64,000 nucleotides of DNA from Bacteroidales bacterium (GCA_038212135.1 JBBQUX010000001.1:13734-77733), one strand, 5' to 3'; shown: positions 46,554 through 63,949, counted from the first letter of the stretch. The notes: generated from the letters alone by a model not told the origin. Translations and numbers: made by a program.

Positions 46554-47843
46554 ATGAAAAAAAAATTCTTTTTATTTGTGCTTGTACCAAGTTTTTTTTT
46601 GTGTTTCTCATGTAAAAAAGAGACCACTACAATTCCTGCAACAGGCGGCGCATATGTTGTATTTGCGTGGAATGACCTCGGAATGCATTGTCTTAATCCA
46701 TCGTACGACGAAATGGTAATCCTGCCTCCTTTTAACACAGTAAATGTACAGGTTGTAAAAAGGGGAGATCCTCCACAAATTATTACCACAGGAATAACTG
46801 TTGAATACAACCTTATTAATAATACTTCGTCTTACGGTAAAAGGTTTTATGGTGGATTCTGGACAAATTTTACCGCTTTGTTCGGAGGTACGCCTCCTGC
46901 AAACAATATTGGGCTTACAGGCACTGCTCTTTCGGGAACAATGACTGCCAAAACCGACCACTTTTCAGCGGAAGGAATGCCTGTTGTTCCGGTGAATGAT
47001 GCCGGAATATGGGACCCTTTCCAGGTTATTGAGGTTAGGGTTAAAGATGCATCAGGTAATTTACTTGCAATAACGCAGGCAACTGTTCCTACTTCCGACG
47101 AAATAAATTGTGCAAAGTGTCATACTGAAGCTACAGGCAGTGTATTTACAAACATATTAAATGCCCACGACGCAGCCCATGGTACCACATTGGTGAACCA
47201 GAAACCGGTTTTATGTGCTAAATGCCATGGCAGTCCTGCCTTGGGTACTACCGGTCCGGGAACATCAGGCAAATATTTTTCACAGGCAATTCATGGATTT
47301 CATGCAACCAAAAGTGCAACCTGCTATGATTGCCACCCCGGAACATCAACCAAATGCAACAGGAGTATTGCCCATGGAGGGAACAATAGCGACGGCTATT
47401 GTACAACCTGTCATGGCGATATGGCAAATGTGGCATCAACTATTGAAAATGGAAGAGTACCATGGGTAACAGAGCCAAAATGCATAAAGTGCCATACTGG
47501 TGTTAGCGGTGTAGAAACAAACACATTGCTTTACCGCAATTCAGTCGGACATGGTAATGTTTACTGTACTGCTTGCCATGGAAGTCCACACGCTATGTAT
47601 CCTTCACGCGAAGCGAAAGACAATTATCAACCCAATCAATACCAGGGTAGCAAAATTAAAACGATCGGGAGTTGTGGCGTTTGCCACGACAGTTCCAAAG
47701 GTGAAGGCTCGGGAGGTGAATTTTCCAGCACACATGGTGGTACAAATCCGGAACATCAGAATACATGTCATGTCTGCCACACGGCCATTTCTTCAAATAC
47801 GGCCAACTGGCCTCATGGTTATTCATGGAAAAATTCAAATTAG
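46554..47843 (+). CDS. octaheme c-type cytochrome lipoprotein (8 x CXXCH), unknown family
   Basis: Start at MKKKFFLFVLVPSFFLCFSC (lipobox). A heme-free N-terminal domain of about 170 aa (WNDLGMHC...) is followed by CAKCH, CAKCH, CYDCH, CTTCH, CIKCH, CTACH, CGVCH and CHVCH. Confidence 0.85.
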   Translation: MKKKFFLFVLVPSFFLCFSCKKETTTIPATGGAYVVFAWNDLGMHCLNPSYDEMVILPPFNTVNVQVVKRGDPPQIITTGITVEYNLINNTSSYGKRFYGGFWTNFTALFGGTPPANNIGLTGTALSGTMTAKTDHFSAEGMPVVPVNDAGIWDPFQVIEVRVKDASGNLLAITQATVPTSDEINCAKCHTEATGSVFTNILNAHDAAHGTTLVNQKPVLCAKCHGSPALGTTGPGTSGKYFSQAIHGFHATKSATCYDCHPGTSTKCNRSIAHGGNNSDGYCTTCHGDMANVASTIENGRVPWVTEPKCIKCHTGVSGVETNTLLYRNSVGHGNVYCTACHGSPHAMYPSREAKDNYQPNQYQGSKIKTIGSCGVCHDSSKGEGSGGEFSSTHGGTNPEHQNTCHVCHTAISSNTANWPHGYSWKNSN

Positions 47844-48130: not shown

Positions 48131-49561
48131 ATGAAAAAGCACAGACCCAAATTCATTTTGCTGATGATAGTTCTTTTGCCGGTACTGATGGCATCAGTTA
48201 CATCAGATGAGTATGTAGTATTAAGTTGGAATGATTTAGGCATGCATTGTGCCAATAAAGATTTTTCAACTATGGTAATACTACCACCTTACAACAACCT
48301 GAAAGCGCAGGTAATTAAACGAGGCAATGCAACCACTATGCCGCAGTTAATAACAACCGGTCTCACTGTTACTTATGAAATTCCTGGTAATACATATTCG
48401 GTTGGTAAAACAAATTTCTGGACATATTCGCTAGGTTTGTTTGGCGTTTCTATACCCAATACCGGACTTACCGGTGCCGGATTAACCGGGACGATGGCAA
48501 TGAATACGAATGAATATTTTCAGGATGGTATACCACTTACCCCTTATCAGGATAATAATCTGGTTACAGAATCGCCTTTTCAACTTGCGATGATCAAGGT
48601 GAAAGACGGAGGTGGGAATTTACTCGCACAAACCCAACCAGTAATTCCGGTTTCGAATGAAATTAATTGTGTAAGTGCCGGATGCCATAATAGCGAACAG
48701 GCAATTTTAAATGAACATGAACTGGAAGGTGGTTTTAATCCCAATAACAAACCAGTGAAATGTTCGAGCTGTCACTCCGATAATGCTTTAGGTGCTCCGG
48801 GCGTTCCGGGCTTACCCTCTTTTTCTGAGGTAATCCACAAGAAACACGGCAGCATCACAAATGATTGTTATAAATGCCATCCGGGGCCAAACACTCAATG
48901 CTTTAGGGATATAATGCATACAGGAGGCATGGTTTGCCAGGATTGCCATGGAAATGTTTCACATGTTGGCCAAACTATTCAAAATGGAAGGCAACCTTGG
49001 CTGCAGGAGCCTTCGTGTGGCGAAGCTGCTTGTCATGGTGCTAATTATTCGCCAGAACCAAACAAGTTATACCGTAATTCGAGGGGGCATGCTAATTTGT
49101 ATTGTTCGGCATGTCACGGATCGCCTCATGCTATTGTTCCAACCGAACAGGCAAATGATAACGTTCAGAGCATTGCCGTTCAAGGTTGGGCCGGAACACT
49201 ATCGAAATGCTCGGTATGTCATGGTATTACCCCCAATTTGCCTGGTCCTCACGGGATTATGGGAACCGGTATCATAGAAATAAGCGGGACTGTTCCAAAA
49301 ACCACTCATCTGGATCCTGTTTTTCCTAATCCTGTTAATTCTCAGACCCATATAGGATTAAAGGTAAAAGAAGCCGGAAACATTAAAGTTGAAGTATTTT
49401 CATCAACCGGGAAATACATTGAAACAATTTTCAGCGCTCAGATTACACCCGGTGAATATATAATTGACTTTAATACCGGAAACCTGGCAAACGGAGTTTA
49501 TACCTGCATTATGCTGGCCGGAAAAGCAAAAGACACTAAAAGTTTTATTATCAGCCGATAG
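48131..49561 (+). CDS. multiheme c-type cytochrome (5 x CXXCH plus 2 x CX4CH) with T9SS type A C-terminal sorting domain; paralog of 46554-47843
   Basis: Signal peptide. N-domain colinear with the paralog (WNDLGMHCANKDF..MVILPPYNN). Heme motifs CVSAGCH, CSSCH, CYKCH, CQDCH, CGEAACH, CSACH, CSVCH. The last ~85 aa, FPNPVNSQTHIGLKV...GNIKVEVFSSTGKYIET...ANGVYTCIM...KSFIISR, fit the Por secretion tail pattern. Confidence 0.85.
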   Translation: MKKHRPKFILLMIVLLPVLMASVTSDEYVVLSWNDLGMHCANKDFSTMVILPPYNNLKAQVIKRGNATTMPQLITTGLTVTYEIPGNTYSVGKTNFWTYSLGLFGVSIPNTGLTGAGLTGTMAMNTNEYFQDGIPLTPYQDNNLVTESPFQLAMIKVKDGGGNLLAQTQPVIPVSNEINCVSAGCHNSEQAILNEHELEGGFNPNNKPVKCSSCHSDNALGAPGVPGLPSFSEVIHKKHGSITNDCYKCHPGPNTQCFRDIMHTGGMVCQDCHGNVSHVGQTIQNGRQPWLQEPSCGEAACHGANYSPEPNKLYRNSRGHANLYCSACHGSPHAIVPTEQANDNVQSIAVQGWAGTLSKCSVCHGITPNLPGPHGIMGTGIIEISGTVPKTTHLDPVFPNPVNSQTHIGLKVKEAGNIKVEVFSSTGKYIETIFSAQITPGEYIIDFNTGNLANGVYTCIMLAGKAKDTKSFIISR

Positions 49562-49767: not shown

Positions 49768-50811
49768 TTATGGCATAACAGGAACCACTTTGGCATCAGC
49801 CGGAACTTCACCTGTCAGTGCTTTCATGAATGCTGTTATTTCACTTGTTTGTTCAGGTGTTAATTCCTTATTTAATTGTCCTTTGGCCATTATCTGAATA
49901 GTTTTGTCCATTTCTTTTATACTTCCATCGTGCAGGTATGGCCAGGTTTCGGCTATGTTGCGCAACGAAGGCACTTTAAAGAAGTATTTGTCAGCTTCAG
50001 TTTTAGTTGCAGCCATTTTCCCAAAATCATCTACGGTGCTCCCTGTGAGCTCTTTATGAGTTCCAAATAAGGGGTATTTCTGGAACATGTTTCCACCTAA
50101 CAACGGACCCATATGACATGCCGTGCAGCCTGTTTCTATAAAGGCTTTGCAGCCTTTCAACTCCTGATCGTTAAGAACGCTAAGGTCGCCGCCAAGGAAT
50201 TTGTCGAATTTACTGGGTGTAAGCAATGTGCGTTCAAAAGCAGCAATGGAATTTCTCATGTTTGTGAACGAAACGGGCTGTTTGTCATCCGGGAAGGCGG
50301 CTTCGAACATTTTCTTATACCCTTCATTTTTGGTCAGCCTTGCCATTACTTCTTTTTCATCGGGCATGCTCATTTCAACTGGATTCATAACAGGTCCGCC
50401 AGCCTGTTCTTCCACATCTTTCATCCTTCCATCCCAGAACTGCACGAAATGTAAAGCAGCATTTAGTACGGTTGGCGAATTTCTGCTTCCTAATTTCCCG
50501 TTATCGCCCGGGCTGGTCGGTTTGTTATCAACGCCAAACGTAGCCAGATTGTGACAAGTGTTACAGCTTTCAGTATTGTTTAATGAAAGCCTGTTGTCGT
50601 AATACAAAGTTTTACCAAGCAACACTTTTTCGGTAGTTACTGCATTGCCAGGATTAACGGCTTCGTCAGGTAAAGGCTGAAACAGGTTTTTAGCCAGCAT
50701 AAGCACTGAGTCAGCATTGAGCCCTGAAACCTGATCTTTGCTCTGTTTGTTGTTACATGCAAATGTGAGAACCACAATTGCGGTAATGACCGGAATAAAT
50801 AGATTTTTCAT
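49768..50811 (-). CDS. ccpA: di-heme cytochrome c peroxidase (CCP/MauG family)
   Basis: Start at MKNLFIPV (signal/lipobox-like TFAC). CNTCHNL and CTACHMG heme motifs, FWDGR, and VPSLRNIAETWPYLHDGS, characteristic of bacterial CCP. Confidence 0.9.
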   Translation of the reverse strand: MKNLFIPVITAIVVLTFACNNKQSKDQVSGLNADSVLMLAKNLFQPLPDEAVNPGNAVTTEKVLLGKTLYYDNRLSLNNTESCNTCHNLATFGVDNKPTSPGDNGKLGSRNSPTVLNAALHFVQFWDGRMKDVEEQAGGPVMNPVEMSMPDEKEVMARLTKNEGYKKMFEAAFPDDKQPVSFTNMRNSIAAFERTLLTPSKFDKFLGGDLSVLNDQELKGCKAFIETGCTACHMGPLLGGNMFQKYPLFGTHKELTGSTVDDFGKMAATKTEADKYFFKVPSLRNIAETWPYLHDGSIKEMDKTIQIMAKGQLNKELTPEQTSEITAFMKALTGEVPADAKVVPVMP

Positions 50812-50885
50812 GATGATTTTTAATTGGTTTAAATTAAGTGATATTATTATTTTTTTGAATTGGATATGACAGTTTATCAAAGTTA

Positions 50886-51608
50886 TTAATCATCGTCTTC
50901 ATCCTTCTCTTTACTATTTATCTGGTTTTTCTGTTCCGGATTTTCTGCTTCAGGAGAGATTTTTTGAGTAGTAATTGAGTATGGGACTATTGCCAAAGCA
51001 GCCAGTATGCCTGTCGCAGCAACAATTTTCTGAAATGAATTCAGCTTGATACCTTCTGCATCAATGTTTTTGTAGCCCGTAAAAATAGATAATAATGTTC
51101 CCGCTTTTTTGTTAAAAATAAAATCAACAATGTTACCGAGCAAATGCGCAATCACAAGCCCGATAAGGATATTCACAGCAATCTCGTGGATTTCTTTTAG
51201 TGAATCTTCTGACAAACCGGTTTGAACGAAAGCAAACAGACCTTGTCCTTCCGATGCCAGCAATAAAATTCCTGATACAACGATTATCAGGCTGAAAATT
51301 ATGATCCCCAACATTACGACCGATGCCGCAGGATTATGACCAGGTGACTGACTCTTACTTTCCTTCATATTGGCAGCAAATTTTTTGAGAGAATTCACCC
51401 CGATAGGGAAATCGCTGAACCTTGAGTATTTTGGGCCGACAAAGCCCCATATTATCCTGAAAATGATCAGTATCCCAACCATATATCCAACGGATGAATG
51501 AAAATTCAGCAATTCTTCTTCGCCTGATAAAATGTAAGCGGCAACCATTCCGATTACCAGAAGCCAATGGAAAATCCGTGTTGGCAAACTCCAGATGTAT
51601 GTTTTCAT
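50886..51608 (-). CDS. cytochrome b561 / Ni-Fe-hydrogenase b-type cytochrome family membrane protein
   Basis: 240 aa. PTRIFHWLLVIGMVAAY, SVGYMVGILIIFRIIWGF and HEIAVNILIGLVIAHLLG provide the conserved His pairs in 4 TM helices. Acidic C-terminal tail. Confidence 0.8.
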   Translation of the reverse strand: MKTYIWSLPTRIFHWLLVIGMVAAYILSGEEELLNFHSSVGYMVGILIIFRIIWGFVGPKYSRFSDFPIGVNSLKKFAANMKESKSQSPGHNPAASVVMLGIIIFSLIIVVSGILLLASEGQGLFAFVQTGLSEDSLKEIHEIAVNILIGLVIAHLLGNIVDFIFNKKAGTLLSIFTGYKNIDAEGIKLNSFQKIVAATGILAALAIVPYSITTQKISPEAENPEQKNQINSKEKDEDDD

Positions 51609-51653
51609 AGTTTTTAGAATTAAAGTTTGAGTGTTAATTTTTGATTATATGTT

Positions 51654-52514
51654 TTATTCTTTCCCGGATGGTTCATAATGAATGTGAACCTCACAGCGTT
51701 CAATCCGGCCGCAAATTATTTTTTCGACCTTGTGCGAAATGGCGTGAGCCTCGCTTATGTTCAATTCCGGATCAACATGTATGGTTATATTTACAAATGT
51801 GTCGGCTCCGGCTACCCTTACTTTTAAATCGTGGTAATAACTCACTTCAGGAATGAGTTGAATCATGGAGGAAATTTCATCGCTGAGTGTAAGCGGGCTG
51901 CGGTCGAGAAGTACATCTATCGCTTTTTTACCAAGCCTGTATGATACTGTGAGAACGATTAATGCTACTCCAAGAGCGGCAACCGAATCGGCTGCAAAAA
52001 GGCCGAAATTCGCACAAATCAATCCGATCAGAACAACTACTGAACTCCATATATCAGTGGAAAAATGAAGCGCATCAGCCTCCAGTGCCTGGCTATTGTA
52101 CTTTCGCGCTACTTTATATAAAGCTCTCGAACGTGACACATCAACAATGATTGAAGATATGACTACAATATAACTCCAGATTGTTACTTCAATGTGGATA
52201 TTGCCTGTTAACAAACGGTTTACAGCTTCGTTTACGATCCATACACAGGTAATGATAAGCAATATTGTTTCAAGAAGAGCTGAGAAATTTTCGGTTTTTC
52301 CATGACCAAAGTGATGATGCTTATCAGCCGGCTTGTCAGAAACTCTAACTGTAAAATATGTGATTACAGCAGCAACAAGGTCCAGAGCCGAATGTAGTGC
52401 TTCCGATAAGATACCGAGACTTCCGGTGAGTAAACCGACTATGAGTTTAAACCCGGTTAAAAAGATGGCCGCAAATACTGATATTCCGGCTACTCTCTTT
52501 TTCTCTTTTTCCAT
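51654..52514 (-). CDS. cation diffusion facilitator (CDF) family metal efflux transporter
   Basis: 286 aa. SEALHSALDLVA (TM2) and ALHFSTDIWSS (TM5) CDF motifs, plus a C-terminal cytoplasmic domain. Confidence 0.88.
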   Translation of the reverse strand: MEKEKKRVAGISVFAAIFLTGFKLIVGLLTGSLGILSEALHSALDLVAAVITYFTVRVSDKPADKHHHFGHGKTENFSALLETILLIITCVWIVNEAVNRLLTGNIHIEVTIWSYIVVISSIIVDVSRSRALYKVARKYNSQALEADALHFSTDIWSSVVVLIGLICANFGLFAADSVAALGVALIVLTVSYRLGKKAIDVLLDRSPLTLSDEISSMIQLIPEVSYYHDLKVRVAGADTFVNITIHVDPELNISEAHAISHKVEKIICGRIERCEVHIHYEPSGKE

Positions 52515-52632: not shown

Positions 52633-52932
52633 TTAGCAGGATTGTTTGGGTGGTTGCCAGATGGAAGAGAGGAAATAGCTGAATTCAGGCTGAGCTTTCA
52701 TAAATAAATGCAGGTGGTTAGAAAGGTCAGAGCCAGAAAATATAATAGAACTCTTCTGGAAAAAATGATCGCCAAACGAAATAGTATGGTGATGCGGTCC
52801 GTCAGTATTGCCGGTATGAAAAGGGATATGTGTTGTGTTAATATTTGCATACAAAGAAATACTTTCATCCACACTCATCAGCAGAGCGATCATAACAGCT
52901 AAAACAGCAGCTATATATCTTAATTTCTTCAT
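52633..52932 (-). CDS. small secreted/anchored His-rich hypothetical protein
   Basis: Start at MKKLRYIAAVLAVMIALLM (signal or anchor). His-rich mature part (THIPFHTGNTDGPHHHTISFGDH..NHLHL). First ORF of the reverse-strand CDF/cyt b/CCP gene string. Coding status is not certain. Confidence 0.45.
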   Translation of the reverse strand: MKKLRYIAAVLAVMIALLMSVDESISLYANINTTHIPFHTGNTDGPHHHTISFGDHFFQKSSIIFSGSDLSNHLHLFMKAQPEFSYFLSSIWQPPKQSC

Positions 52933-53216
52933 ATCAGCAGCAAAAATACAAAAACAATCTGGTTTGATCATTCTCCCAACTTTATTCAAAGTCGCAAGCT
53001 TTGGATGAGTGAGCCTGAAAATTGCAATATAGTTATACATATTTACGTTCTTAAATACGTGAATAGGTTTAATGTTTTCTGATGATTAAGTTTGAATCTA
53101 AAGCATTGCTAAATAGTTGATTAAATAAAATTATGATTAAAGCAGCAAGCGACCGATTTCTACAAATCTAGTATCCCTTTTATGGTTTTCCTGCTGCTCT
53201 ATGTGCAAAAAAATAA

Positions 53217-53237
53217 AATTTAGAATGTTTCTAAATT
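53217..53237. promoter_or_regulatory. perfect 21-bp palindrome AATTTAGAA-TGT-TTCTAAATT (candidate operator)
   Basis: 9-bp perfect arms, 35 nt upstream of the TACCTTTG -7 box of the multiheme operon, in the 403-bp divergent intergenic region. Confidence 0.35.
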
Positions 53238-53271: not shown

Positions 53272-53279
53272 TACCTTTG
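53272..53279 (+). promoter_or_regulatory. Bacteroidota -7 promoter box (TAnnTTTG)
   Basis: TACCTTTG lies 57 nt upstream of the ATG at 53336. Confidence 0.4.
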
Positions 53280-53335
53280 ATTTCTTGTATTACCCGATTT
53301 TCAGCTGTATAACTGAATAAAAAAGCTAGAAGAAC

Positions 53336-54205
53336 ATGAATAAAGCAGTTCACAGAATTTACCTGGCAGGATTATCACTTATAGTATTAATTGCATTTGC
53401 TGCAATTACATTAAAAGGATACCAATATTATAAAATCAGTCTCGAAGAACGTTTTTTTCATCCGGATCATACCATCCTTAAACCAAGTGGTTTTTGGGGT
53501 CATGGAATGGGAATAGTTGGCTCCATTTTTATGATCCTTGGTGTAACCCTGTATATGGCCCGTAAGAGGTACAGAGTATTCTCGCGGTTGGGCTTTTTAA
53601 AACACTGGCTCGAATTTCATATTTTTTTGTGTACGTTGGGTCCTATCCTTGTACTTTTTCATACCGCCTTTAAATTCGGTGGCATAGTTGCAATCAGTTT
53701 CTGGAGCATGGTAGCTGTTTTCCTGAGTGGAATTATCGGAAGGTTTATCTATATTCAGATTCCGCGAACAATCGAAGGACGCGAATTAAGTCTTTCTGAA
53801 GTTAGAGGTATGAAAGGTGATATCGGTAACACATTAAGCCATTCGATTCAATTGGATGAAGGAAGCCGGAATGTAATTGCGGATTCAATAAAGGTAAAAC
53901 CAGAACTTTATCATAGTAATTTCTTTGTACGCACTTTTAGGAAATATGTTGACGACAGAAAGTCACTTGGTAGTGTAAAGACTGTTTTGAAAAAAAATAA
54001 TCTTTCCAAATCGCAACGGATTGAAGTGTTGAACCTTGTAGAAAATGAAATTTCACTCAACAGGAGGATTGAACGGCTTGTATTAATGCAGAATTTATTT
54101 AAATACTGGCACGTGGCACATTTGCCATTTGCCCTGGTGATGCTTGTAATTATGGTAATACATGTTGCAGTTACCATTGTATTTGGTTATAAATGGATAT
54201 TCTAG
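53336..54205 (+). CDS. polytopic membrane protein with paired conserved-looking His residues (unknown family)
   Basis: 289 aa. Four N-terminal TM helices ([23 protein letters not shown]), a soluble loop of about 110 aa, and a final TM segment [23 protein letters not shown]. First gene of the operon. Confidence 0.75.
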
Positions 54206-55542
54206 TTATGGATGAGATGCTTTTAGAGAAGGTGGTTATTTATTCCCTGGTAATTCTGTTTTGCCTGGTTATTGTATTTATTTATTTGCGCAAGCAGAAA
54301 CGGGAATCGAAAAAAGTGGAGGAAAAAATTGTTATTGCAAAACGGGATGGAATGTACGAGCCTGTATCGTTGCACCCGGTAATTGACGAAGGCAGTTGTA
54401 TACGAACTGGTGCATGCATTGCTGCCTGTCCGGAAAAGGATATTCTGGGTATAAAAGATGGTAAAGCAACAACGATAAATGCTTCTAAATGTATCGGACA
54501 TGGGGCTTGTTTCCATGCCTGTCCAACAGAAGCTATAACACTGGTAATAGGTACCGAAAAGCGTGGCGTTGAACTGCCTCATATTAATCAGAACTTCGAA
54601 ACCAATGTTGACGGAATTTATATTGCAGGTGAGTTAGGAGGAATGGGTCTGATAAAAAATGCCGTTGAACAGGGCAGGCAAGCCGTCGAAAATCTGGCAA
54701 AAACCCTTCGCAAAGCGCACCAGGCAACTTACGACCTCGTAATTATAGGTGCTGGTCCTGCAGGAATTTCTGCTTCGCTCACTGCAAAAAAACATAACCT
54801 CAACTTTCTGACTCTTGAACAGGATACCCTGGGAGGAACTGTTTTTACTTTCCCCAGGCAAAAAATTGTAATGACTTCAGCCATGGATCTCCCTCTGTAT
54901 GGCAAAGTGAAATTATTCGAAACCAGTAAACCGGCACTACTTGATTTATGGAATTCAGCACTTACAAAGAATGGCATTAGTATTCAAGAAAACACAAAAG
55001 TAGAATCGATAACAGCCGAAAACGGGCATTTTAATATCGAAACACTTACGGGACAGCATATTACAGCAAAAACCGTTTTGCTGGCCATCGGGCGAAGAGG
55101 TACGCCGCGTAAACTTGGTGTTGAAGGAGAAATGCAGGAAAAAGTAGCTTACCGGCTCCTGGAACCGGAAGATATAAGCGGGAAAAACATTATGGTTGTT
55201 GGCGGAGGTGATTCGGCCATTGAGTCCGCTTTGCTGCTGGCTGATCATAATAATGTTACTCTTTCCTACCGCAGTGAAGCTTTTAACCGAATAAAGCAGA
55301 AAAATAGCGAAAAGATAAAAGATGCCATAATTTCGGGCAAGGTGAAAGTGCTTTTCAACACAAATCCGGTTCGCATTAACAAGGATTCAGTTGTGCTTAC
55401 AACCAGCATGGAAGAGGAGGAACTTTATATTGAAAATGACCTGGTTTATATTTTTGCCGGCGGTGAACTCCCGATTCAATTCCTGGAAAAGGCTGGTATC
55501 CATATCACTAAAAAGTTCGGGGAAGCAATAATGAAACATTGA
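54193..55542 (+). CDS. membrane-anchored 2x[4Fe-4S] ferredoxin-domain / FAD-NAD(P)-binding (thioredoxin-reductase-like) oxidoreductase
   Basis: N-terminal TM segment ([19 protein letters not shown]). Cluster motifs [12 protein letters not shown] and [12 protein letters not shown]. Dinucleotide folds [13 protein letters not shown] and [13 protein letters not shown]. Its start overlaps the upstream gene by 13 nt. Confidence 0.85.
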
Positions 55543-55568
55543 AATTGATATTTTAGGCAAAACTGCAC

Positions 55569-57170
55569 ATGACATTCAGAATTAAACATATTGTAAGTTT
55601 ATTTGCACTGGCAGCTTTTCTCTGCTTTTCAGCAAAAGCTCAGATATCGCCGGGTGAACTTGCCAAAGTGCATTCGCATCTCGAAGGCATTTCGAACTGC
55701 ACAAAATGTCATACGCTGGGCGATAAGGTATCTAATGACAAATGCCTGGCCTGCCATACCGAAATAAAAACCCGCATTGATCAAAAAAGAGGCTACCACT
55801 CATCCCCACAGGTTAAAGGCAAACAATGCGCCAGCTGCCATAATGATCACCATGGGCTGACTTTTCAGATCATACGATTCGACAAGGATAAATTTATTCA
55901 CGATCTGGCAGGATACAAGTTAACTGGTGCTCACAGCAGGAAAAAATGTGAGGATTGTCACAAGGCTGCTTTTATTTCCGATGTAAAAATCAAAGCAAAA
56001 AAGTTTACTTACCTCGGGCTAAAAACTGAATGTCTGGCCTGTCACGCTGATTATCACCAAAAAACACTTTCGACTAATTGCGCCGAATGCCACACGGATG
56101 AAAAGTTTAAGCCGGCATCAAAATTCGATCATAACAAGTCTAAATTTAAATTGGCAGGTAAGCACCAGGATATTGCCTGCGCCGAATGCCACAAGACTTC
56201 GGTAAGGAATGGACAGAAATTCCAGGAATTCAAAGGGGTAAAAGCCACCAACTGTACTAACTGCCACAAAGATGTTCATGACAATAAGTTTGGGCAGAAT
56301 TGTGCTGAATGTCATAATAATGAGTCGTTTACTGTTGTAGGAGGCGTGAAGAATTTCGATCACAGCAAGGCTGATTTTAAACTGGAAGGCAAACATGTGA
56401 ATGTAGCCTGTAAAAAATGTCATAAAGTAAAACTAACAACACCTTTATTCTTTAAACGCTGCACCGAATGTCACACTGATTATCATGGCAAAGAATTCGC
56501 GAAAAACGGCGTTTCTCCCGATTGTTCTGCCTGCCACAATGAGAAGGGTTTTACTGAATTTTCATATACCATCGAGCAGCACAACGCCGGTGTTTTCCCA
56601 TTAAAAGGAGCTCATGTTGCAACTCCATGTTTCGCATGTCACAAAAAAGAGGAGAAATGGAAATTTAAAGAAATAGGTAAAAACTGCAAAGATTGCCACC
56701 TCGACATTCACAATACATTTATCAGCAGCAAGTATTATCCTGAAGCAAATTGTGAATCATGCCACAATCTGAACCGCTGGAGTGCAGTGGAGTTTGACCA
56801 TAAAAAAACACAGTTTGAACTTGAAGGTGCTCATACGAAGCAAACCTGCCGCGATTGTCATTTCAATAAAGAAAAGACGGGACACGCAAATCAAAAATTT
56901 TCAGGATTAGCTACCAACTGCACCAATTGTCATACAGATGTGCATTTCAAACAGTTTGAAGACAATGGAGTCACGGATTGTAAAAAATGCCATAATTCCG
57001 ATTCATTTAAACCCGCTTCAAAATTCGATCACGGCAAAGCGCGATTTTTGCTGGATGGAAAACACGTGAATGTGGCTTGCATAAAGTGCCACAAAGAAGT
57101 AACAGAACAAGGCGTAACTTTTGTATTGTACAAAACAAATAAAACGAAATGCGAAGACTGTCATCTATAA
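55569..57170 (+). CDS. 20-heme c-type cytochrome (cytochrome c3/c7-like, doubled-CXXCH architecture)
   Basis: Signal peptide (..CFSAKAQ). 20 CXXCH motifs in 533 aa, counted by hand. Six copies of the F(D/I)Hx(K)xxFxLxG(K/A)Hx4-5CxxCH module. Confidence 0.9.
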   Translation: MTFRIKHIVSLFALAAFLCFSAKAQISPGELAKVHSHLEGISNCTKCHTLGDKVSNDKCLACHTEIKTRIDQKRGYHSSPQVKGKQCASCHNDHHGLTFQIIRFDKDKFIHDLAGYKLTGAHSRKKCEDCHKAAFISDVKIKAKKFTYLGLKTECLACHADYHQKTLSTNCAECHTDEKFKPASKFDHNKSKFKLAGKHQDIACAECHKTSVRNGQKFQEFKGVKATNCTNCHKDVHDNKFGQNCAECHNNESFTVVGGVKNFDHSKADFKLEGKHVNVACKKCHKVKLTTPLFFKRCTECHTDYHGKEFAKNGVSPDCSACHNEKGFTEFSYTIEQHNAGVFPLKGAHVATPCFACHKKEEKWKFKEIGKNCKDCHLDIHNTFISSKYYPEANCESCHNLNRWSAVEFDHKKTQFELEGAHTKQTCRDCHFNKEKTGHANQKFSGLATNCTNCHTDVHFKQFEDNGVTDCKKCHNSDSFKPASKFDHGKARFLLDGKHVNVACIKCHKEVTEQGVTFVLYKTNKTKCEDCHL

Positions 57171-60010
57171 TCCTGTCGTTGGTACTTTCATTAAGTCTGG
57201 TGGCCCAGAAATCGCCTCATGGTGATACTTTCAAAGCCAATTGCGACGATTGCCATAAAACCGATGGCTGGAAGGTTGATTTTAAAACAGTTTCCTTTGA
57301 TCATAATGGAACAAAATTCCCTCTTGTTGGTCAGCACCAGGCTGTGAATTGTAAGCAATGCCATACTTCACCCGAATTTGCCAAAGCACAAACGGAATGC
57401 AATTCGTGCCATACAGATATTCACGAACAAACGGTTGGTAATGAATGTGCCAGGTGTCATACTCCAAATTCCTGGATGGTAACTAATATAACCCAACTTC
57501 ATCAACAGAGCCGTTTCCCGCTTATTGGCCCTCATACGGTTGCTGATTGCCGGGATTGTCATAAAAATCTTTTATCGGCTACAACTCCGGCATCCCCATC
57601 AGCTTCACTTCTCCGGTTCGATCCTTTAGGTGTCGAATGTTATGATTGTCATAAAGAGGATTATACTACTGCAAAAGAACCTGATCATGTAGCAGGAGAT
57701 TATCCGACAAACTGTATCGAATGTCATACTATTAATTCATTTGAATGGAAAGGAGCAGGCATCAACCATAATTTCTTTCCGCTTGAGGGAGGGCATAACA
57801 ATATTGATTGTAAAAAATGTCATACTTCCGGAACCTATGCAACTATACCTGCTGAGTGTAATTCCTGTCACCAGCCTGATTATACGTCAACTCAAAATCC
57901 CAATCATACTTCACTCAATTTTTCGAATGACTGCAGCAAATGTCATTCCCTAAATCCCGGTTGGAAACCAGCGGAATATTTAGACCATGATGCGCAGTCA
58001 TTTCCAATATATTCGGGAAAACACAAAGGAGAATGGGAAAATTGTTCCGATTGCCATACAAATCCGTCAAATTATGCTCAGTTCACATGTACTGATTGCC
58101 ACGAGCATAACAAAGGTGATACGGACGAACAACATGGAGATGTTAGTGGTTACGAATACAACAGCATGGCCTGCTTTGCCTGTCACCCGACAGGCGATAG
58201 AGAAGGAAGTTTCGATCATAATAAATCAAGCTTCCCCTTAACCGGGGCTCACACCACAACGGCTTGTGCCGATTGTCATACAACGGGATACGCAGGCACT
58301 CCGAACGTGTGTGCAAGCTGCCACATAAATAATTATAATCAATCTACTAATCCAAATCACAAAGCACCCGGCAGTAAGTTTACCGAGGATTGTGCCGCCT
58401 GCCATACTACCAACACCGGATGGAAACCTGCTACTTACCCTGTGCATTCGAACCTTGAGGGAGCTCACGTTCCTATCGCCAACGATTGTGCAGCCTGCCA
58501 TAACGGAAGTTATACAACCTTGCCCTCAACTTGCTACGATTGCCACACTACAGATTATACGCAATCAAATAATCCTTCTCATGCTAGTGCTCAGTTCCCG
58601 ACAACCTGCGCTGATTGCCACACTCAGGCAGCATGGAAACCCGCAACTTTCAATCATGATGGTCAGTACTTCCCAATTTATTCAGGGAAACATAACGGGG
58701 AATGGGATAATTGTTCTGATTGTCATACAAATCCAGCGGATTATAAAGTTTATACCTGTACTTCTGCCTGTCACCTGAAACCAAAAATGGATAGTGAACA
58801 TCAGGGCGTTGGTGGTTATCTATACAACAGCCCCTCCTGCCTGGGATGCCATCCGGATGGAACAGCACAAGGTTTTGACCATAATGCTGCCGGGTTCCCT
58901 TTAACCGGCGGGCATGCGACAGTATTATGCATAAATTGTCATACCAGTGGATATGCCGGAACCTCGCCTGTTTGTGCGGGCTGTCATACTCCTGCTTTTA
59001 ACCAATCTGTTAATCCAAATCATACTTCGCTTGGAATACCTACCGATTGTGCAGCCTGTCATACAACCAATCCGGGCTGGAGTCCGGCAACTTTTGCAAC
59101 GCACAACAATTATTATGTTATTGCCGGTGCTCATGTGCCTATTGCAAATGAATGTGCCACCTGCCATAATGGAAATTATATTAATTCGCCTAATACTTGC
59201 TTTGGTTGTCATGCTTCATCCTACAACCAGACCACTAATCCAAATCATGCTGCAGCGCAATATGCTACTACCTGTGAAGATTGTCACACGCAAAGTGCCT
59301 GGTCGCCATCAACTTTTAACCATAATACCACATATCCGCTAACAGGAGCACATTCAGCAATCGCCAGTAATTGTTCGCAGTGTCATCCGAACGGATATTC
59401 CAATACTCCTAATACATGTGCAGGATGCCACCAAAACAATTATAACCAGGCAACGAATCCGAATCATATTTCTCTTGGAGTGTCCAACGATTGTGCTGTT
59501 TGCCATACAACAAACCCTGGCTGGCAACCTGCTGCCTTTCCGGTTCATAACAATTACTATGTTTTAGCCGGGGCTCACGTATCTGCTGATTGTGCCGATT
59601 GCCACAATGGTAATTATAACACCACACCCAATACATGTGCAGGGTGCCATATGAATGACTATAACCAGACTAATGATCCGAACCATGCTTCGGCACAGTT
59701 CCCGACAAGTTGTGAAGATTGTCATACGCAGACTGCATGGCAACCTTCAACTTTCAATCATGACGGACAATATTTCCCGATTTATTCAGGTAAACATAAT
59801 GGTGTGTGGAATACCTGTTCGGATTGCCATCCTAACTCAGCAAACTATGCAGTATATACCTGCACTACCTCGTGCCATCCGCAGAATTCCACTAACAATG
59901 CGCATAACGGGGTAAGTGGGTACCAGTATCTGAGTAGTGCCTGCCTGAATTGTCACCCTAATGGAAATGGGGATAAGAAGATCTTTATTAATGATATAAG
60001 GAATAATTAA
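57149..60010 (+). CDS. giant multiheme c-type cytochrome (35 x CXXCH plus 2 x CX3CH in 953 aa)
   Basis: Signal peptide MRRLSSIILSLVLSLSLVAQ. Heme motifs counted by hand. Three-fold repeated module (..FPIYSGKH.G.W..CSDCH.N...Y...TCT..CH......H.GV.GY.Y.S..C..CHP.G). Eight copies of CxxCH-x3-[YF]-x5-P-x-H. The start overlaps the 20-heme gene by 22 nt. Confidence 0.9.
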   Translation: MRRLSSIILSLVLSLSLVAQKSPHGDTFKANCDDCHKTDGWKVDFKTVSFDHNGTKFPLVGQHQAVNCKQCHTSPEFAKAQTECNSCHTDIHEQTVGNECARCHTPNSWMVTNITQLHQQSRFPLIGPHTVADCRDCHKNLLSATTPASPSASLLRFDPLGVECYDCHKEDYTTAKEPDHVAGDYPTNCIECHTINSFEWKGAGINHNFFPLEGGHNNIDCKKCHTSGTYATIPAECNSCHQPDYTSTQNPNHTSLNFSNDCSKCHSLNPGWKPAEYLDHDAQSFPIYSGKHKGEWENCSDCHTNPSNYAQFTCTDCHEHNKGDTDEQHGDVSGYEYNSMACFACHPTGDREGSFDHNKSSFPLTGAHTTTACADCHTTGYAGTPNVCASCHINNYNQSTNPNHKAPGSKFTEDCAACHTTNTGWKPATYPVHSNLEGAHVPIANDCAACHNGSYTTLPSTCYDCHTTDYTQSNNPSHASAQFPTTCADCHTQAAWKPATFNHDGQYFPIYSGKHNGEWDNCSDCHTNPADYKVYTCTSACHLKPKMDSEHQGVGGYLYNSPSCLGCHPDGTAQGFDHNAAGFPLTGGHATVLCINCHTSGYAGTSPVCAGCHTPAFNQSVNPNHTSLGIPTDCAACHTTNPGWSPATFATHNNYYVIAGAHVPIANECATCHNGNYINSPNTCFGCHASSYNQTTNPNHAAAQYATTCEDCHTQSAWSPSTFNHNTTYPLTGAHSAIASNCSQCHPNGYSNTPNTCAGCHQNNYNQATNPNHISLGVSNDCAVCHTTNPGWQPAAFPVHNNYYVLAGAHVSADCADCHNGNYNTTPNTCAGCHMNDYNQTNDPNHASAQFPTSCEDCHTQTAWQPSTFNHDGQYFPIYSGKHNGVWNTCSDCHPNSANYAVYTCTTSCHPQNSTNNAHNGVSGYQYLSSACLNCHPNGNGDKKIFINDIRNN

Positions 60011-60020
60011 AGTCTTGATT

Positions 60021-61643
60021 ATGAAACTTATACTTCCTGTATTTTTATTATTGTTAGTTGGTTCTGGCCTGAAAGGACAAACAACCGGCGGAACTAAAGA
60101 AGGGACTGTATCGTATATCACTTCGCTGAGTGTTTATGTGAAATTTGAAACAACTGAAAGTATCTCAGTAGGGGATACCCTGTTTACTTTTAAGGATTCA
60201 AAAATGGTTCCTGCCCTCATAGTAAAGGAACTGTCTTCTATTTCATGCGTTTGTACCCCATTGGTATCAATAAAATTATCATTGAATGATAAAATACAAT
60301 CCCGGCCAAAAATTATAAAACCTGTCGAAAATCAGAATGTTGTGGTTGTGCCTGTCGTGAAGCCAGTGGAGGTGATAACAGATACAGTGGCGTCAAAAAA
60401 AGTAACTCCTGCTGAACCAAAGCAAAGTATCAGCGGACGAATTTCAGTTTCTTCGTATTCGAATTTTTCGAATGTCTCGGATTTTTCCCAACGCATGAGA
60501 TACACTTTTTCGATGAATGCGCAAAATATCAGTGATTCGAAGTTCTCGGCCGAAACTTACATTTCATTTGTGCACAAAATGAACGAATGGAGCGAAGTAC
60601 AGGAAGATATTTTCAATGGATTAAAGATTTACAGCCTGTCGGTCAATTATGCTTTTAACAAGAATAACACTATCTGGTTTGGCCGGAAGATAAATCCACG
60701 TCTTTCGAATGTTGGAGCAATTGACGGGCTTCAGTACGAAACCAAATTCAAATCCTTTACAGCTGGAGCCTTTTTCGGGTCAAGGCCTGATTATATGAAC
60801 TATAGTTTTAATGCCAGTTTGTTGCAATACGGCGGATATTTTAGCCACGATTATTTGAATAAAAAGGGTGGAAGTGCGCAAACTTCTTTGGCTTTTGTTG
60901 AGCAAAAAAATAACGGCAATACCGACCGGAGATTTGCTTATTTACATCATTCCAATTCGCTGCTGCCTAAGCTTTATTTCTTCGGATCTATCGAATTTGA
61001 CCTTTACAACAAAGTACTGAATTCACAGGATAGTTCTTACACCCGGGACTATACGCCCAATCTTTCGAACATATATTTTTCGCTCCGGTACAAAGTGATT
61101 AAGCAATTATCAATATCTGTATCATACAGTGAAAGGCAGAATATCATTTATTATGAAACCTACAAAAGCATCGTTGATCAGTTGCTCGAAGAAGCCACAA
61201 TGAGGGGTTTCATGTTCCAGGTAAACTACCGCCCGATAAAAAACATGACTATCGGTGCAAATGCCGGCTACCGTGTTAGCAAAAAAGATCCTGGGCCATC
61301 AAAAAACCTATATACTTACCTCACATACAGCAATGTGCCCTGGATTAATGCTTCCGCAACTATTTCGGCCACCTTGTTGCAAACAAGCTATCTTTCGGGA
61401 AACATATATAGTTTCGGCCTTTCACGTGACCTGGTGCCGGGCAAGTTATACGGCGGAGTTAGTTACAGACACGTAAACTATAAATTCCAGAGCGCAGAGA
61501 CTCCCTTAATTCAGAATATGGGTGAGATGAACCTGACCTGGCGAATTATGAAGAAACTTTCGCTTTCAGCTAATTATGAAGGCACCTTTGAAAAGGGAAG
61601 AAACTACGATCGTATCTATATTAATCTTACGCAACGTTTCTAA
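60021..61643 (+). CDS. predicted outer-membrane beta-barrel protein (unknown family)
   Basis: Signal peptide MKLILPVFLLLLVGSGLKGQ. N-terminal soluble domain of about 130 aa, then a long alternating hydrophobic/aromatic strand pattern with frequent Y/F/G/N/S. The terminal residue is Phe (...YINLTQRF), the classic OMP C-terminal signature. Starts 10 nt after the giant cytochrome gene. Confidence 0.65.
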   Translation: MKLILPVFLLLLVGSGLKGQTTGGTKEGTVSYITSLSVYVKFETTESISVGDTLFTFKDSKMVPALIVKELSSISCVCTPLVSIKLSLNDKIQSRPKIIKPVENQNVVVVPVVKPVEVITDTVASKKVTPAEPKQSISGRISVSSYSNFSNVSDFSQRMRYTFSMNAQNISDSKFSAETYISFVHKMNEWSEVQEDIFNGLKIYSLSVNYAFNKNNTIWFGRKINPRLSNVGAIDGLQYETKFKSFTAGAFFGSRPDYMNYSFNASLLQYGGYFSHDYLNKKGGSAQTSLAFVEQKNNGNTDRRFAYLHHSNSLLPKLYFFGSIEFDLYNKVLNSQDSSYTRDYTPNLSNIYFSLRYKVIKQLSISVSYSERQNIIYYETYKSIVDQLLEEATMRGFMFQVNYRPIKNMTIGANAGYRVSKKDPGPSKNLYTYLTYSNVPWINASATISATLLQTSYLSGNIYSFGLSRDLVPGKLYGGVSYRHVNYKFQSAETPLIQNMGEMNLTWRIMKKLSLSANYEGTFEKGRNYDRIYINLTQRF

Positions 61644-61700
61644 AGACTGCTAATTACCTGAAAAGAGTCAATTTTAGTTTAAATCTCAAAATACATTTTT

Positions 61701-62435
61701 ATGAAACCCAAAACAGTGGTCATTGCCATTGCTATTATGGTAGGTGTAATCCTGATAGCAGTTCCTTTTATCAACAGTAAGAAGGATAGAAAGGCTCTTG
61801 ATTTGCCTCCGGGTACTCATGAAGTAACCATTGCAGAAGTGATTCAAACTAATAAATATACCTATTTTCTTGTAGAAGAAAACGACAGTGAATACTGGAT
61901 TGCTGTAACCAAACGCGAAGCTAGCAAAGGTGATGTGATTTATTATTCCAATCCGTTGGAAATGAATAATTTCGTGAGTAAAGAGTTGGGCCGCACATTC
62001 CCCACCATATTCTTTGTGCAGGATGTAAGTGAAAAGCCATTTCCTGATGAAAATACTGCATCGCCGCAGATGGCACAAAAGAAACCGGAAATCGTAAAAA
62101 TGGATAATGTAAAAATAGATCCGGTTAAGGGAGGTATATCCATTTCAGACTTGTACGATGGGCAGGCTAAATATGCTGGTAAAACAGTTATTATTCGCGG
62201 GGTCGTTGTGCGGTATAACCATATGGTAATGGGGAAAAACTGGGTACATATTCAGGATGGTACTGAATCCTCCGGTCAGTTCGATCTTGCAATTACAACG
62301 AAGGACAGCCTTGCCGTAGGGAATACAGTTACTTTCACCGGAGCAATCAGCCTTAACAAAGATTTTGGCTCAGGATATTTCTATAAGGTAATTATGGAGG
62401 ATGCGAAAGCTTCTGATATAATTTCAATTGAATAA
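61701..62435 (+). CDS. membrane-anchored hypothetical protein with two similar halves (possible OB-fold-like domains)
   Basis: N-terminal TM segment (VVIAIAIMVGVILIAVPF). Two segments share a layout (..TIAEVIQTNKYTYFLVEENDSEYWIAV..KGDVI vs ..SISDLYDGQAKYAGKTVIIRGVVV..NWVHIQDGT...AITT...VGNTVTFTG). Last gene of the operon. Confidence 0.7.
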   Translation: MKPKTVVIAIAIMVGVILIAVPFINSKKDRKALDLPPGTHEVTIAEVIQTNKYTYFLVEENDSEYWIAVTKREASKGDVIYYSNPLEMNNFVSKELGRTFPTIFFVQDVSEKPFPDENTASPQMAQKKPEIVKMDNVKIDPVKGGISISDLYDGQAKYAGKTVIIRGVVVRYNHMVMGKNWVHIQDGTESSGQFDLAITTKDSLAVGNTVTFTGAISLNKDFGSGYFYKVIMEDAKASDIISIE

Positions 62436-62773
62436 ATAATCCGAATGTAGTTTTCCTAAGTGTTTTCAGACTTTTGAATATGTATATTTTTGTTGACGGT
62501 TCTGATATGCCAATAATTCCGGATACTGATATGTTGTTTGTTGAAACACAAAAAGAATGTGACCCGGCTTTCTGTAAATGTTTTTTGGACATTGACTTTT
62601 ATGTTGAAAGCCTTGTTATGCGTTCGTTGTTTATTTTTTTCGTGTCTGAGTCGCGATTATTTTTTTAATGAAGGCTGGAAGTTCAATTTTGTTTTGGTCT
62701 GCAATTATTCGTATAGCATCATAATATTTTACCTTGTCTGCTTTCCAATGTAAGTCGAGCCGCCTAATTTCTT

Positions 62774-63142
62774 TCATGGCAATTGCATACATAGCATTTT
62801 CCTTGACCAAGGTTCATAAAGCTTGTTTTTGAAAACTTTAGGGACAGAAATTCTCCCTTCAACTCTGTTAAGACGGAGTTTTGTTGTGTCGCCGGATTTA
62901 TATGCAGCAATTGATTTTCCTCCGTTTGATTTTACTTTGAAAGTTTCTAAAGGCATTCCCGCATCACGTACATCTCGCACAACTCGTGGAGGATGGTTGT
63001 ATCCGTATCTGTTTTCAAGGTCTTCGGTTGTAATAAAACCGTGTTTAAGAATGTGATCAACTACTATTTTCGCCCTTTTGTTTGTGATCGAAGTTATATA
63101 GGCTAAAAATTCTTTCGGATAAGTAGCTTTGTTTTTACTCAT
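62774..63142 (-). CDS. hypothetical protein with wHTH-like N-terminus; possible truncated restriction endonuclease partner of the adjacent methyltransferase remnant
   Basis: Start at MSKNKATYPKEF, where the ATG overlaps the methyltransferase stop (ATGAGTAA). The block HGFITTEDLENRYGYNHPPRVVRDVRDAGMPLETFKVKS..GKSIAAYK resembles N-termini of HNH-type endonucleases linked to methyltransferases (from memory). The ORF stops where the catalytic Cys/His region would be expected. Confidence 0.45.
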   Translation of the reverse strand: MSKNKATYPKEFLAYITSITNKRAKIVVDHILKHGFITTEDLENRYGYNHPPRVVRDVRDAGMPLETFKVKSNGGKSIAAYKSGDTTKLRLNRVEGRISVPKVFKNKLYEPWSRKMLCMQLP

Positions 63143-63949
63143 AGTTTGCAAAGAGTTCCGTTTGGTATGTCTGTTTTTCTGGTTCTATATTCGTTGCAAC
63201 TTTAGCAACCAAAGCTGGTGAAAGATATATTACTTCATATGTAATTTCATTTCTGCTAAGGAGTGTGGCCTGTGAAGAGCGGCCTGCATTTATTTCTATT
63301 TTCTTCAAATTCAGATTTTCGGGTAACGGATTACCATAAGTCTTGTCGCCTGTTCTGCCATCAAAGCTTAAAATGTAAGGGACATTTTTGTGATTTAGTT
63401 CAAAAAGTGAAACTACAAAACTTTCAAATTCGATATTGCCAGAGTAATTAAACCCGCCATTTAAGCCTGTTCCTTTGATAGGGTGGATCCATATAAACCA
63501 GATCATTTGGTGTAGCTAATTCAAGAATATTCAAATAATCTGCCGAATAAACTTCGGTTTTACTTTTTAGCAATTGTGAACTCTCAAAATATCGTCTCTC
63601 ATCATTTGTGGACTTCGGCCAAGTCTTCTTTTGTCTGGGCTTTGATTAAAGCCGCCTTTTGAATTATAACGAACCGCTGCCTTTACGCACTTTGCTATCA
63701 GAAATAATAAATACTCGGGATTTTTTCATCCCAAAGTTGTGTCAATGGTTCATTGATGTCATTTATTATGAAGTGATTTGCTTTAAAATAATAGGCAGAC
63801 GAAATAGTAATTGCTGCTGAACCTGCAAATGGTTCTATCAGGCGGTCAAAGTTGACTGGAAAGTAACGCAAAATCTGGTCTGCCAGGTTCCGCTTGCTAC
63901 CTTGATATGGAATAGGATGTGGTAATTTCATCAAGTCAGTTTTAAACAA
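63135..63949 (-). pseudogene. Dam-type (D12 class) N6-adenine DNA methyltransferase, disrupted by at least three frameshifts
   Basis: Four reverse-strand segments lie in different frames. (1) MKLPHPIPYQGSKRNLA...IEPFAGSAA (SAM motif), ending at a stop. (2) VRYNSKGGFNQSPDKRR..., ending at a stop. (3) LLKSKTEVYSADYLNILELATPNDLVYMDPPYQ (DPPY motif), ending at a stop. (4) KGTGLNGGFNYSG...PYILSFDGRTG...YEVIYLSP. Confidence 0.7.

Follow-up and report, generated by a model that had tools for sequence, protein, structure and literature searches.

A widespread gene cluster of anaerobic Bacteroidota and Ignavibacteriota encoding two multiheme cytochromes, a predicted outer-membrane barrel and a candidate NAD(P)H-linked entry module

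The DNA considered here, called the window, is a stretch of 64,000 nucleotides (nt) from Bacteroidales bacterium GCA_038212135.1 (JBBQUX010000001.1:13734-77733), and all positions are counted from its start. Six close-packed open reading frames (ORFs) on the + strand, designated g1 to g6, lie at 53336-62435 (Table 1). The first five, g1-g5, make up a genuine cluster, widespread and as yet uncharacterised, among anaerobic Bacteroidota and Ignavibacteriota. Their products may form a quinone-independent route of electron export, in which electrons would pass from NAD(P)H to flavin adenine dinucleotide (FAD) and the iron-sulfur (Fe-S) clusters of g2, then to two hemes b in g1, and from there to the multiheme cytochromes g3 and g4, with the barrel protein g5 as a sheath or dock. 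The probability of this reading is put at roughly one half.

The array was read directly, and its junctions from g1 to g6 (-13, +26, -22, +10, and +57 nt) are those reported in a first-pass annotation of the same DNA. The overlaps of 13 and 22 nt suggest translational coupling for g1/g2 and g3/g4. The g4-g5 gap of +10 nt applies to the ATG of g5 at 60021 and becomes +4 nt with an in-frame TTG at 60015; g5 orthologues begin at the Met equivalent to the ATG.

In a scan of one genome per species, at least 571 genomes were found to carry a relative of g1, and the best 80 loci were examined in detail. All 80 belong to Bacteroidota, including Bacteroidales, Lentimicrobiaceae, Salinivirgaceae, Prolixibacteraceae/Draconibacterium, Marinilabiliales, and Rikenellaceae, and their sources are mostly anoxic lakes, sediments, and subsurface sites. 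The genes g1-g5 are all present at 60 of these loci and colinear in 59 of the 60, and in 19 of the 20 incomplete loci the sequence stops at the end of a contig. Median identity to the window proteins is 71% for g2, 66% for g1, 58% for g3, 52% for g5, and 50% for g4. The core is also found in Ignavibacteriaceae, where a tetratricopeptide repeat (TPR) gene is added, and in Sunxiuqinia sp. A32, a cultured isolate. Comparative genomics thus established g1-g5 as a block conserved across many lineages. A small TPR-repeat protein gene stands beside g2 at locus L085 (Ignavibacteriaceae) and at L087 (a relative with 57% guanine-plus-cytosine, GC), and L087 has in addition an 808-aa protein with a type IX secretion system (T9SS) sorting domain encoded between g1 and g2.

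The sixth gene had been counted as part of a six-gene operon, which applies to g1-g5 as the conserved block and does not extend to g6. An orthologue of g6 is found near the cluster at about 23 of the 80 loci (at 9 it follows g5, at 11 it lies upstream of g1 in divergent orientation, and at 3 it is elsewhere), and g6 is an optional, mobile accessory and not a core gene. Its product has one transmembrane segment (residues 6-24) and only a marginal GW match in Pfam; most orthologues have a lipobox Cys, i.e., are lipoproteins. The two similar halves ascribed to this protein were not recovered by BLAST (E = 0.96) or hhalign (probability 0.3%).

The association of g1 with g2 and g3 reaches far beyond close relatives. 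The genes g1 and g2 are adjacent from 81% down to 28% identity. What follows g1 relatives at 28-34% identity is a g2-type gene in L088, L089, and the P0388 contig, and a g3-type cytochrome gene, immediately adjoining, in L090, L091, and L092 (the last from a 65% GC organism); these distant g3-type cytochromes keep the mature N-terminus Q-I/L-S-P-G-x-L-x-x-x-H...L-E-G..N-C-T-x-C-H. Two high-GC relatives of g1 are on contigs too short for context, except L092. Because g1 stays beside g2, a g3-type cytochrome, or both throughout its family, the three products are argued to work together. At L088 and L089, where the g1 relative has 28% identity, g1-g2 is preceded by genes for a 993-aa AMIN-domain protein and a 273-aa protein without heme motifs, and a 23-heme g3-type cytochrome is encoded some 5 kb upstream; at these loci the g1-g2 entry module has other partners.

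The g1 protein is polytopic and His-rich, as had been noted, with about five predicted transmembrane helices and 12 His. It passes no family cut-off in Pfam or NCBIfam. Its own family has at least 7386 homologues, and a profile search retrieved clusters at 50% identity, at least 2954 in number, of which 304 had E <= 1e-30. Among 53 representatives of the family (28-49% identity to g1) 10 columns are invariant, and four of them are His, namely H95 and H109 on the third transmembrane helix and H262 and H276 on the last one, both pairs being spaced i/i+14. Hydropathy and charge bias predict that both His-bearing helices run in-to-out, with an RKRYR loop before the third helix and a basic, helical insert of about 115 aa, predicted to be cytoplasmic, before the last. 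Since the helices would be parallel and carry i/i+14 pairs, one His site is expected near each membrane face (H95+H262 and H109+H276). The same two-pair His geometry of di-heme transmembrane cytochromes b is found in the ferric-reductase/NOX domain. Three heme-b membrane families, DUF4405 (34/53), Ferric_reduct (20/53), and Ni_hydr_CYTB (9/53), are matched below threshold by members of this set, in the helices that bear the His; the top scores are 25.2, 17.3, and 21.2 bits against cut-offs of 26.7, 28, and 30.1 bits, respectively, so that none reaches the gathering threshold. From this sequence signature it is strongly inferred that g1 binds heme b as a di-heme cytochrome b.

The g2 protein has one N-terminal transmembrane helix, a ferredoxin-like domain, and then a Pyr_redox_2/3 flavoprotein domain (Pfam: Fer4_10, 3.6e-11; Pyr_redox_3, 1.6e-40). 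Since a Lys/Arg-rich stretch follows the helix, the catalytic domains are predicted to be cytoplasmic. Among solved structures the closest are YpdA/Bdr (7a76, 7a7b) and TrxR-type ferredoxin-NADP reductases (FNR; 3ab1, 2zbw); because it misses the YpdA equivalog cut-off (153 vs 340 bits), g2 is considered a relative and not an orthologue of YpdA. The flavoprotein part has the two-dinucleotide-binding-domain FAD/NAD(P)H fold of TrxR/YpdA/FNR type, without the CxxC redox disulfide, and with zero Cys in the flavin domain g2 cannot be a disulfide reductase. Its natural reading is that of an FNR-like NAD(P)H:Fe-S oxidoreductase.

The Fe-S domain of g2 is unusual. The protein had been described as a membrane-anchored oxidoreductase with 2x[4Fe-4S] and FAD/NAD(P), of which the anchor and the flavin fold stand, while the canonical 2x[4Fe-4S] part does not, since there are only six Cys, in two Cx5Cx3CP motifs. 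These are CxxTxxCxxxCP at residues 69-80 (C-I-x-T-G-A-C-x-x-A-C-P in orthologues) and CxxHxxCxxxCP at residues 100-111. The six Cys are invariant in 79 orthologues, and the second Cys of the two motifs is replaced by Thr in 71/79 and by His in 79/79, respectively. Motifs of the Cx5Cx3CP type, known for example from succinate dehydrogenase and actinobacterial ferredoxins, point to [3Fe-4S] clusters or to ligation by a residue other than Cys. The sequence therefore suggests [3Fe-4S] or His-ligated clusters in g2, unusual for a dicluster domain.

A functional parallel to g1 and g2 is offered by NOX/SpNOX and MsrQ-Fre, in which an NAD(P)H flavoprotein delivers electrons to a transmembrane cytochrome b having two bis-His hemes, with His about 13-14 residues apart on parallel helices, and the electrons emerge at the outer face. 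The design of flavoprotein followed by transmembrane cytochrome b appears to be shared, and the Ferric_reduct matches above agree with it. The parts differ. The NOX-type dehydrogenase is of the FNR-type FAD_binding_8/NAD_binding_6, whereas g2 combines a TrxR/YpdA-type two-dinucleotide fold with an Fe-S domain and its own anchor; g1 is set apart from NOX and ferric reductases by its long insert and sub-threshold family scores; and the acceptors of NOX and MsrQ are O2, Fe-chelates, or MsrP, whereas the proposed acceptor of g1 is a multiheme cytochrome c. The first-pass annotation had seen no inner-membrane entry module in the window, and this view is revised here, g1+g2 being the candidates for that role on account of the invariant His signature and the linkage of g1 to g2 or a g3-type cytochrome.

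Heme motif counts of the two cytochromes agree with the earlier ones, with 20 CXXCH in g3 and 35 CXXCH plus 2 CX3CH, i.e., 37, in g4, or one per about 26-27 residues. Both are Sec-exported. The g3 protein is a cytochrome c with a conserved mature N-terminus (QISPGELxxVHSHLEG..NCTxCH) and its last heme at the extreme C-terminus. There are 44 His for the 20 hemes of g3 and 75 His for the 37 hemes of g4, and Met is almost absent from both (one in g3); plausibly, all of the hemes are bis-His transfer hemes. The two proteins differ in how their heme numbers vary. Exactly 20 hemes are found in 48 of 51 g3 orthologues, while g4 orthologues have from 13 to 64 hemes, and the number follows 13+3n in 55 of 58. 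In g4 a 13-heme core (residues 1-355), which aligns with the shortest orthologues, is followed by eight triheme modules of about 74 residues with a repeating heme spacing of 15 / 25-27 / 30-35 residues.

Both cytochromes match cytochrome c7/c3 models in Pfam, Cytochrome_C7 being the best match (1.3e-26 for g3), and both exceed the cut-off of 30 bits of the MtrC/MtrF domain II/IV model, if weakly (47 bits for g3 and 58 bits for g4). The modular triheme polymer design is shared with the Geobacter c7-type triheme-repeat cytochromes (GSU1996, TIGR04257), but the present family is far longer, with up to 64 hemes, and lies within a cluster with barrel, cytochrome b, and flavoprotein genes; the TIGR04257 model was matched by g3 only, at 21 bits against a cut-off of 40. 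A sequence search of the PDB gave a single weak match for g3, to Thermincola OcwA (6qvm, E = 1e-3), and nothing useful for g4 and g6. Linear heme wires such as MtrA, GSU1996, and OmcS extend by about 0.8-1 nm per heme. At this rate g3 would measure about 16-20 nm and the 13-heme core of g4 about 10-13 nm, and the variable modules could lengthen the wire by up to about 40-50 nm. In g3 the last heme is C-terminal, and the first heme of g4 lies just past the signal peptide, in genes that overlap by 22 nt. A second g4-type gene is present at L028, L047, L052, L063, L081, and L082, often as a minimal 13-heme form beside a long one, which suggests that the g4 core is duplicated in some species; at L028 the barrel gene lies between the two g4-type genes.

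The signal peptide, beta-barrel character, and C-terminal Phe (...TQRF) attributed to g5 were borne out by structure prediction with AlphaFold2, in which the protein has a barrel of about 22 strands (predicted local distance difference test, pLDDT, 73). In this model the signal peptide is followed by a small beta domain (about residues 27-93), a disordered, low-confidence linker of about 35 residues rich in Pro, Val, and Lys, and the barrel ending in Phe. The beta domain is highly conserved, is predicted to be periplasmic, and has an invariant S-C-V-C (CxC) motif; it could serve as a plug or as a cytochrome dock. The distant barrel of L091 has a g5-type N-terminal beta domain. Foldseek matched the model to generic large outer-membrane barrels only (FimD, PfeA, AlgE; TM-scores 0.3-0.46), MtrB was not among the top 50 matches, and neither Pfam (E <= 0.1) nor NCBIfam gave a match. 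More than 1769 homologues of g5 were found, all named "hypothetical."

The combination of cytochrome and barrel genes invites comparison with the described outer-membrane conduits, from which the composition of the cluster differs, as the first-pass annotation had anticipated. In MtrCAB, MtoAB, and PioAB the shared concept is that of a heme wire sheathed by an outer-membrane barrel. The MtrB/PioB porin has 26-28 strands, whereas the g5 model has about 22, and g5 gave no MtrB_PioB match. The MtrA/DmsE decaheme model (TIGR03508) gives 42.0 bits for g3 and 27.4 bits for g4 against a cut-off of 192.2, the heme numbers being 20 and 37 and not 10, and the MtrC/OmcA decaheme lipoprotein model (TIGR03507) gives 24.3 bits for g3 against 209.3, g3 and g4 having no lipobox Cys. 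With the curated cut-offs of the MtrA/DmsE, OmcA/MtrC, ExtN, and HmcA families all widely missed by g3 and g4, the profile searches in Pfam and NCBIfam exclude the MtrA, MtrB, and MtrC families, in line with the earlier impression. Shewanella MtrCAB uses CymA, and the cluster has none; likewise, it encodes no membrane-anchored tetraheme protein of the NapC/NirT (CymA) type, no ImcH-type heptaheme protein, and no CbcL-type fusion of a HydC-type b domain with a multiheme c domain, the only trace being a sub-threshold Cytochrom_NNT match of g3 (18.4 vs 24.1 bits).

The Geobacter Pcc systems (OmaB-OmbB-OmcB; ExtABCD/ExtEFG) share with the cluster the arrangement of a porin-like barrel gene adjoining multiheme cytochrome genes, g5 directly following g3-g4. 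Pcc porins are reported to have 18-22 strands (PMC4245776), a range that includes the strand count of the g5 model. Differences are found in the cytochromes, which have 20 and 13+3n hemes here vs 5-14 (periplasmic) and about 12 (outer lipoprotein) in Pcc, in the outer lipoprotein cytochrome, which the cluster lacks, and in the entry module, which would be an Fe-S flavoprotein with a cytochrome b here vs the quinol oxidases ImcH/CbcL in Geobacter. The NCBIfam ExtN/ExtO models gave 42 bits against a cut-off of 200. By its architecture the cluster would work like a porin-cytochrome conduit and would be a variant of the porin-cytochrome systems, outside the Mtr family.

A "giant PCC-like cluster" with a porin and 61-heme and 20-heme cytochromes, without synteny to characterised porin-cytochrome conduits (PCCs), was reported in Lentimicrobium (PMC13013709; bioRxiv 10.1101/2025.08.12.669901). 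It is almost certainly the same cluster family, since the 61 hemes fit 13+3n and Lentimicrobiaceae are among the carriers found here; the accessible text of PMC13013709 notes the cluster only, with no account of g1 and g2 as a module, of the constancy of the 20 hemes, of the 13+3n rule, or of where the cluster occurs. A lake survey mentions unnamed Bacteroidetes PCC operons (bioRxiv 10.1101/2020.04.01.018762). The seven-gene Bacteroidetes cluster of PMC8258643, considered as a candidate for the same system, was rejected, as its six cytochromes plus barrel represent a different architecture. The literature yielded no account of g1/g2, no rule for the heme numbers, and no experiment, and searches on entry modules that are independent of quinone or linked to NAD(P)H, and on porin-cytochromes in Prolixibacter, Bacteroidota, and Bacteroidales, returned nothing specific.

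In the proposed mechanism, g2 would be tethered at the cytoplasmic face of the inner membrane, use an FNR/YpdA-like FAD site to oxidise NAD(P)H, and relay the electrons via two non-canonical Fe-S clusters, one with the invariant His in a ligand position. The g1 protein would carry them across the membrane via hemes at H95+H262 and H109+H276, in the manner of NOX/ferric-reductase or MsrQ. The g3 protein would dock on g1 by its conserved N-terminus, its fixed 20-heme chain crossing the periplasm, and its C-terminal heme would hand the electrons end-to-end to the N-terminal heme of g4. The 13-heme core of g4 would lie in or against the 22-strand g5 barrel, and the triheme tail (0-17 modules) would lengthen the wire. 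The system would act as an electron sink regenerating NAD(P)+ in fermentative anaerobes, and its acceptors would be insoluble or macromolecular ones, e.g., Fe/Mn oxides, humics, conductive particles, or partner cells.

Several observations weigh against this mechanism. Heme b binding, the NAD(P)H donor, the direction of flow, barrel threading, and extracellular acceptors are all inferred, and the conduit idea itself is drawn from architecture. No curated heme-b family threshold is reached by g1, no similarity to the neighbouring cytochrome b561 family emerged from profile-profile comparison (hhalign probability 0.3%), and its AlphaFold2 model (34 sequences of 74-92% identity) was discarded, with pLDDT of 59.7 and all Foldseek matches at E > 1. 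The NAD(P)H donor and the direction of flow are deduced from flavin-domain homology only. NAD(P)H electron export would conserve no energy, so that any benefit must come from redox balance. At locus L078 g1-g2 occur without a cytochrome or barrel nearby. The carriers are nearly all uncultured genomes, and experimental data on the cluster were not found in the literature. The main weakness concerns the passage of a cytochrome through the outer membrane: the signals of g3, g4, and their orthologues are plain Sec type I ones, with neither lipobox nor T9SS C-terminal domain, no other recognisable path to the cell surface is apparent in g3 or g4, and the two could be purely periplasmic. The conduit suggested by the first-pass annotation is thus upheld in that multiheme cytochrome genes adjoin a large barrel gene in a conserved block, with surface exposure of either cytochrome a conjecture. 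The fullest version, a "NOX-to-nanowire" path in which a new di-heme cytochrome b family and an Fe-S flavoprotein would feed, independently of quinone, a rigid periplasm-spanning 20-heme rod and, through it, an adjustable 13+3n wire running through the 22-strand barrel and projecting from the cell, is a tentative one, with the odds against it.

The same plain signals are what a periplasm-confined system would show, in which g1/g2 feed periplasmic g3/g4 acting as a capacitor, or as a reductase of soluble acceptors (chelated Fe(III), quinone-like humics, or sulfur species) entering via g5 as a solute porin. The resemblance of g5 to generic barrels only, including solute channels (AlgE) and general porins, would fit as well, and so would the all-bis-His appearance of the hemes, which suits storage or transfer. 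However, a 22-strand barrel with a conserved periplasmic domain, found strictly beside the cytochromes, does not have the pattern of a general porin; a fixed 20-heme g3 next to a freely variable g4 is hard to explain as a simple store; and there is no catalytic open-coordination heme or other reductase subunit. Such confinement is regarded as rather improbable. Entry from the quinone pool, with g1 as a quinol:cytochrome c oxidoreductase (like the b-type part of CbcL) in an ordinary respiratory branch, and g2 either reducing quinone from NAD(P)H nearby or having a separate or regulatory role, seems unlikely. The weak matches of the g1 family to Ni_hydr_CYTB and DUF4405, which have quinone-reactive cytochromes b among their members, would agree with it, as would the fact that known extracellular electron transfer pathways begin from quinol (PMC6295460), but the overlap and adjacency of g1/g2 over the whole identity range argue for a physical complex, and the membrane anchor of g2 and its Fe-S relay ending in the His motif suit protein-to-protein transfer. 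Reversal of the wire for uptake of electrons from Fe(II), reduced humics, cathodes, or partner cells is very improbable: porin-cytochrome conduits can be bidirectional (PMC8258643) and sequence does not fix the direction, but reducing NAD(P)+ (about -320 mV) against an inside-negative potential needs energy, no coupling subunit is present, and most carriers belong to fermentative lineages.

Abundant as fermenters in anoxic sediments, lake hypolimnia, peat, and digesters, Bacteroidota and Ignavibacteriota are usually omitted from models of how metals and humics are reduced and from those of direct interspecies electron transfer. Electron export by g1-g5, if true, would change who counts as electroactive and explain the fermentation shift to acetate with acceptors or conductive particles. 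Among routes of extracellular electron transfer, it would be the first entered via an NAD(P)H flavoprotein and a cytochrome b, and not via a quinol oxidase. If the wire indeed projects from the cell, hundreds of fermentative species of the two phyla, living in anoxic lakes, sediments, and digesters, would be major direct reducers of minerals and humics as well as interspecies electron transfer partners. The g1 and g5 proteins define large families that are currently without any annotation, and the design of fixed 20-heme and 13+3n cytochromes is a natural experiment on heme-wire length vs cell-envelope dimensions.

The palindrome and the TAnnTTTG box that had been noted before g1 are both present on direct reading (Table 1). 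The core pattern of the palindrome occurs once here, with 0.4 occurrences expected by chance at one mismatch, and it is carried by 0 of 91 related loci, which rules out a conserved operator; its function is doubtful. A consensus scan found no convincing + strand terminator inside the operon, as had been stated for the sequence before 62435. Counts of promoter-like and terminator-like sites in the region showed no excess over shuffled controls.

Table 1. Features of the window; positions are counted from its start.
Feature	Position	Strand	Description
g1	53336-54205	+	289 aa
g2	54193-55542	+	449 aa
g3	55569-57170	+	533 aa
g4	57149-60010	+	953 aa
g5	60015/60021-61643	+	540 aa counted from ATG at 60021
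g6	61701-62435	+	244 aa
Palindrome AATTTAGAA-tgt-TTCTAAATT	53217-53237	.	perfect 9+9, upstream of g1; read directly
TACCTTTG	53273-53280	+	match to Bacteroidota -7 box TAnnTTTG, 56 nt 5' of g1 ATG; consensus match only
Terminator-like hairpin + T-run	62640-62656	+	first 3' of the array; consensus scan
Octaheme cytochrome c	46497-47843	+	448 aa; Cytochrome_C7, MtrC/MtrF domain, and paired-CXXCH matches
Cytochrome c with 5 CXXCH	48131-49561	+	476 aa; T9SS C-terminal domain (Por_Secre_tail 5.5e-9); some 4 kb 5' of the cluster
Di-heme cytochrome c peroxidase (CCP_MauG), cytochrome b561 (Ni_hydr_CYTB), cation-diffusion-facilitator transporter	49768-52514	-	divergent three-gene set
Protein with Ig-like and PKD domains	9196-13986	-	1596 aa; CHU_C type IX secretion signal domain; domain search
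Three short consecutive ORFs	62774-63949	-	last begins like a D12-class (Dam-type) adenine methyltransferase (...PYQGSKR...FAGSAA...), frame broken

Further electron-transfer genes lie upstream of the array. The five-heme cytochrome is predicted from its T9SS domain to be secreted or surface-attached, and the N-terminus of the octaheme one (...FFLCFSCK) could be a lipoprotein signal. Both were rejected as parts of the cluster, being beside it in no other locus. The peroxidase, b561, and cation-diffusion-facilitator genes were rejected likewise: b561 and the transporter, together with a small ORF (52633-53040), are upstream of the cluster at about 8-10 loci, in close relatives only.

The assignment of the window to a T9SS-bearing host is confirmed by window proteins with T9SS sorting domains (CHU_C, Por_Secre_tail). 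On the far side of the array, two of the three pieces at 62774-63949 have no match in Pfam, and the set may be a decayed methyltransferase or a restriction-modification remnant.

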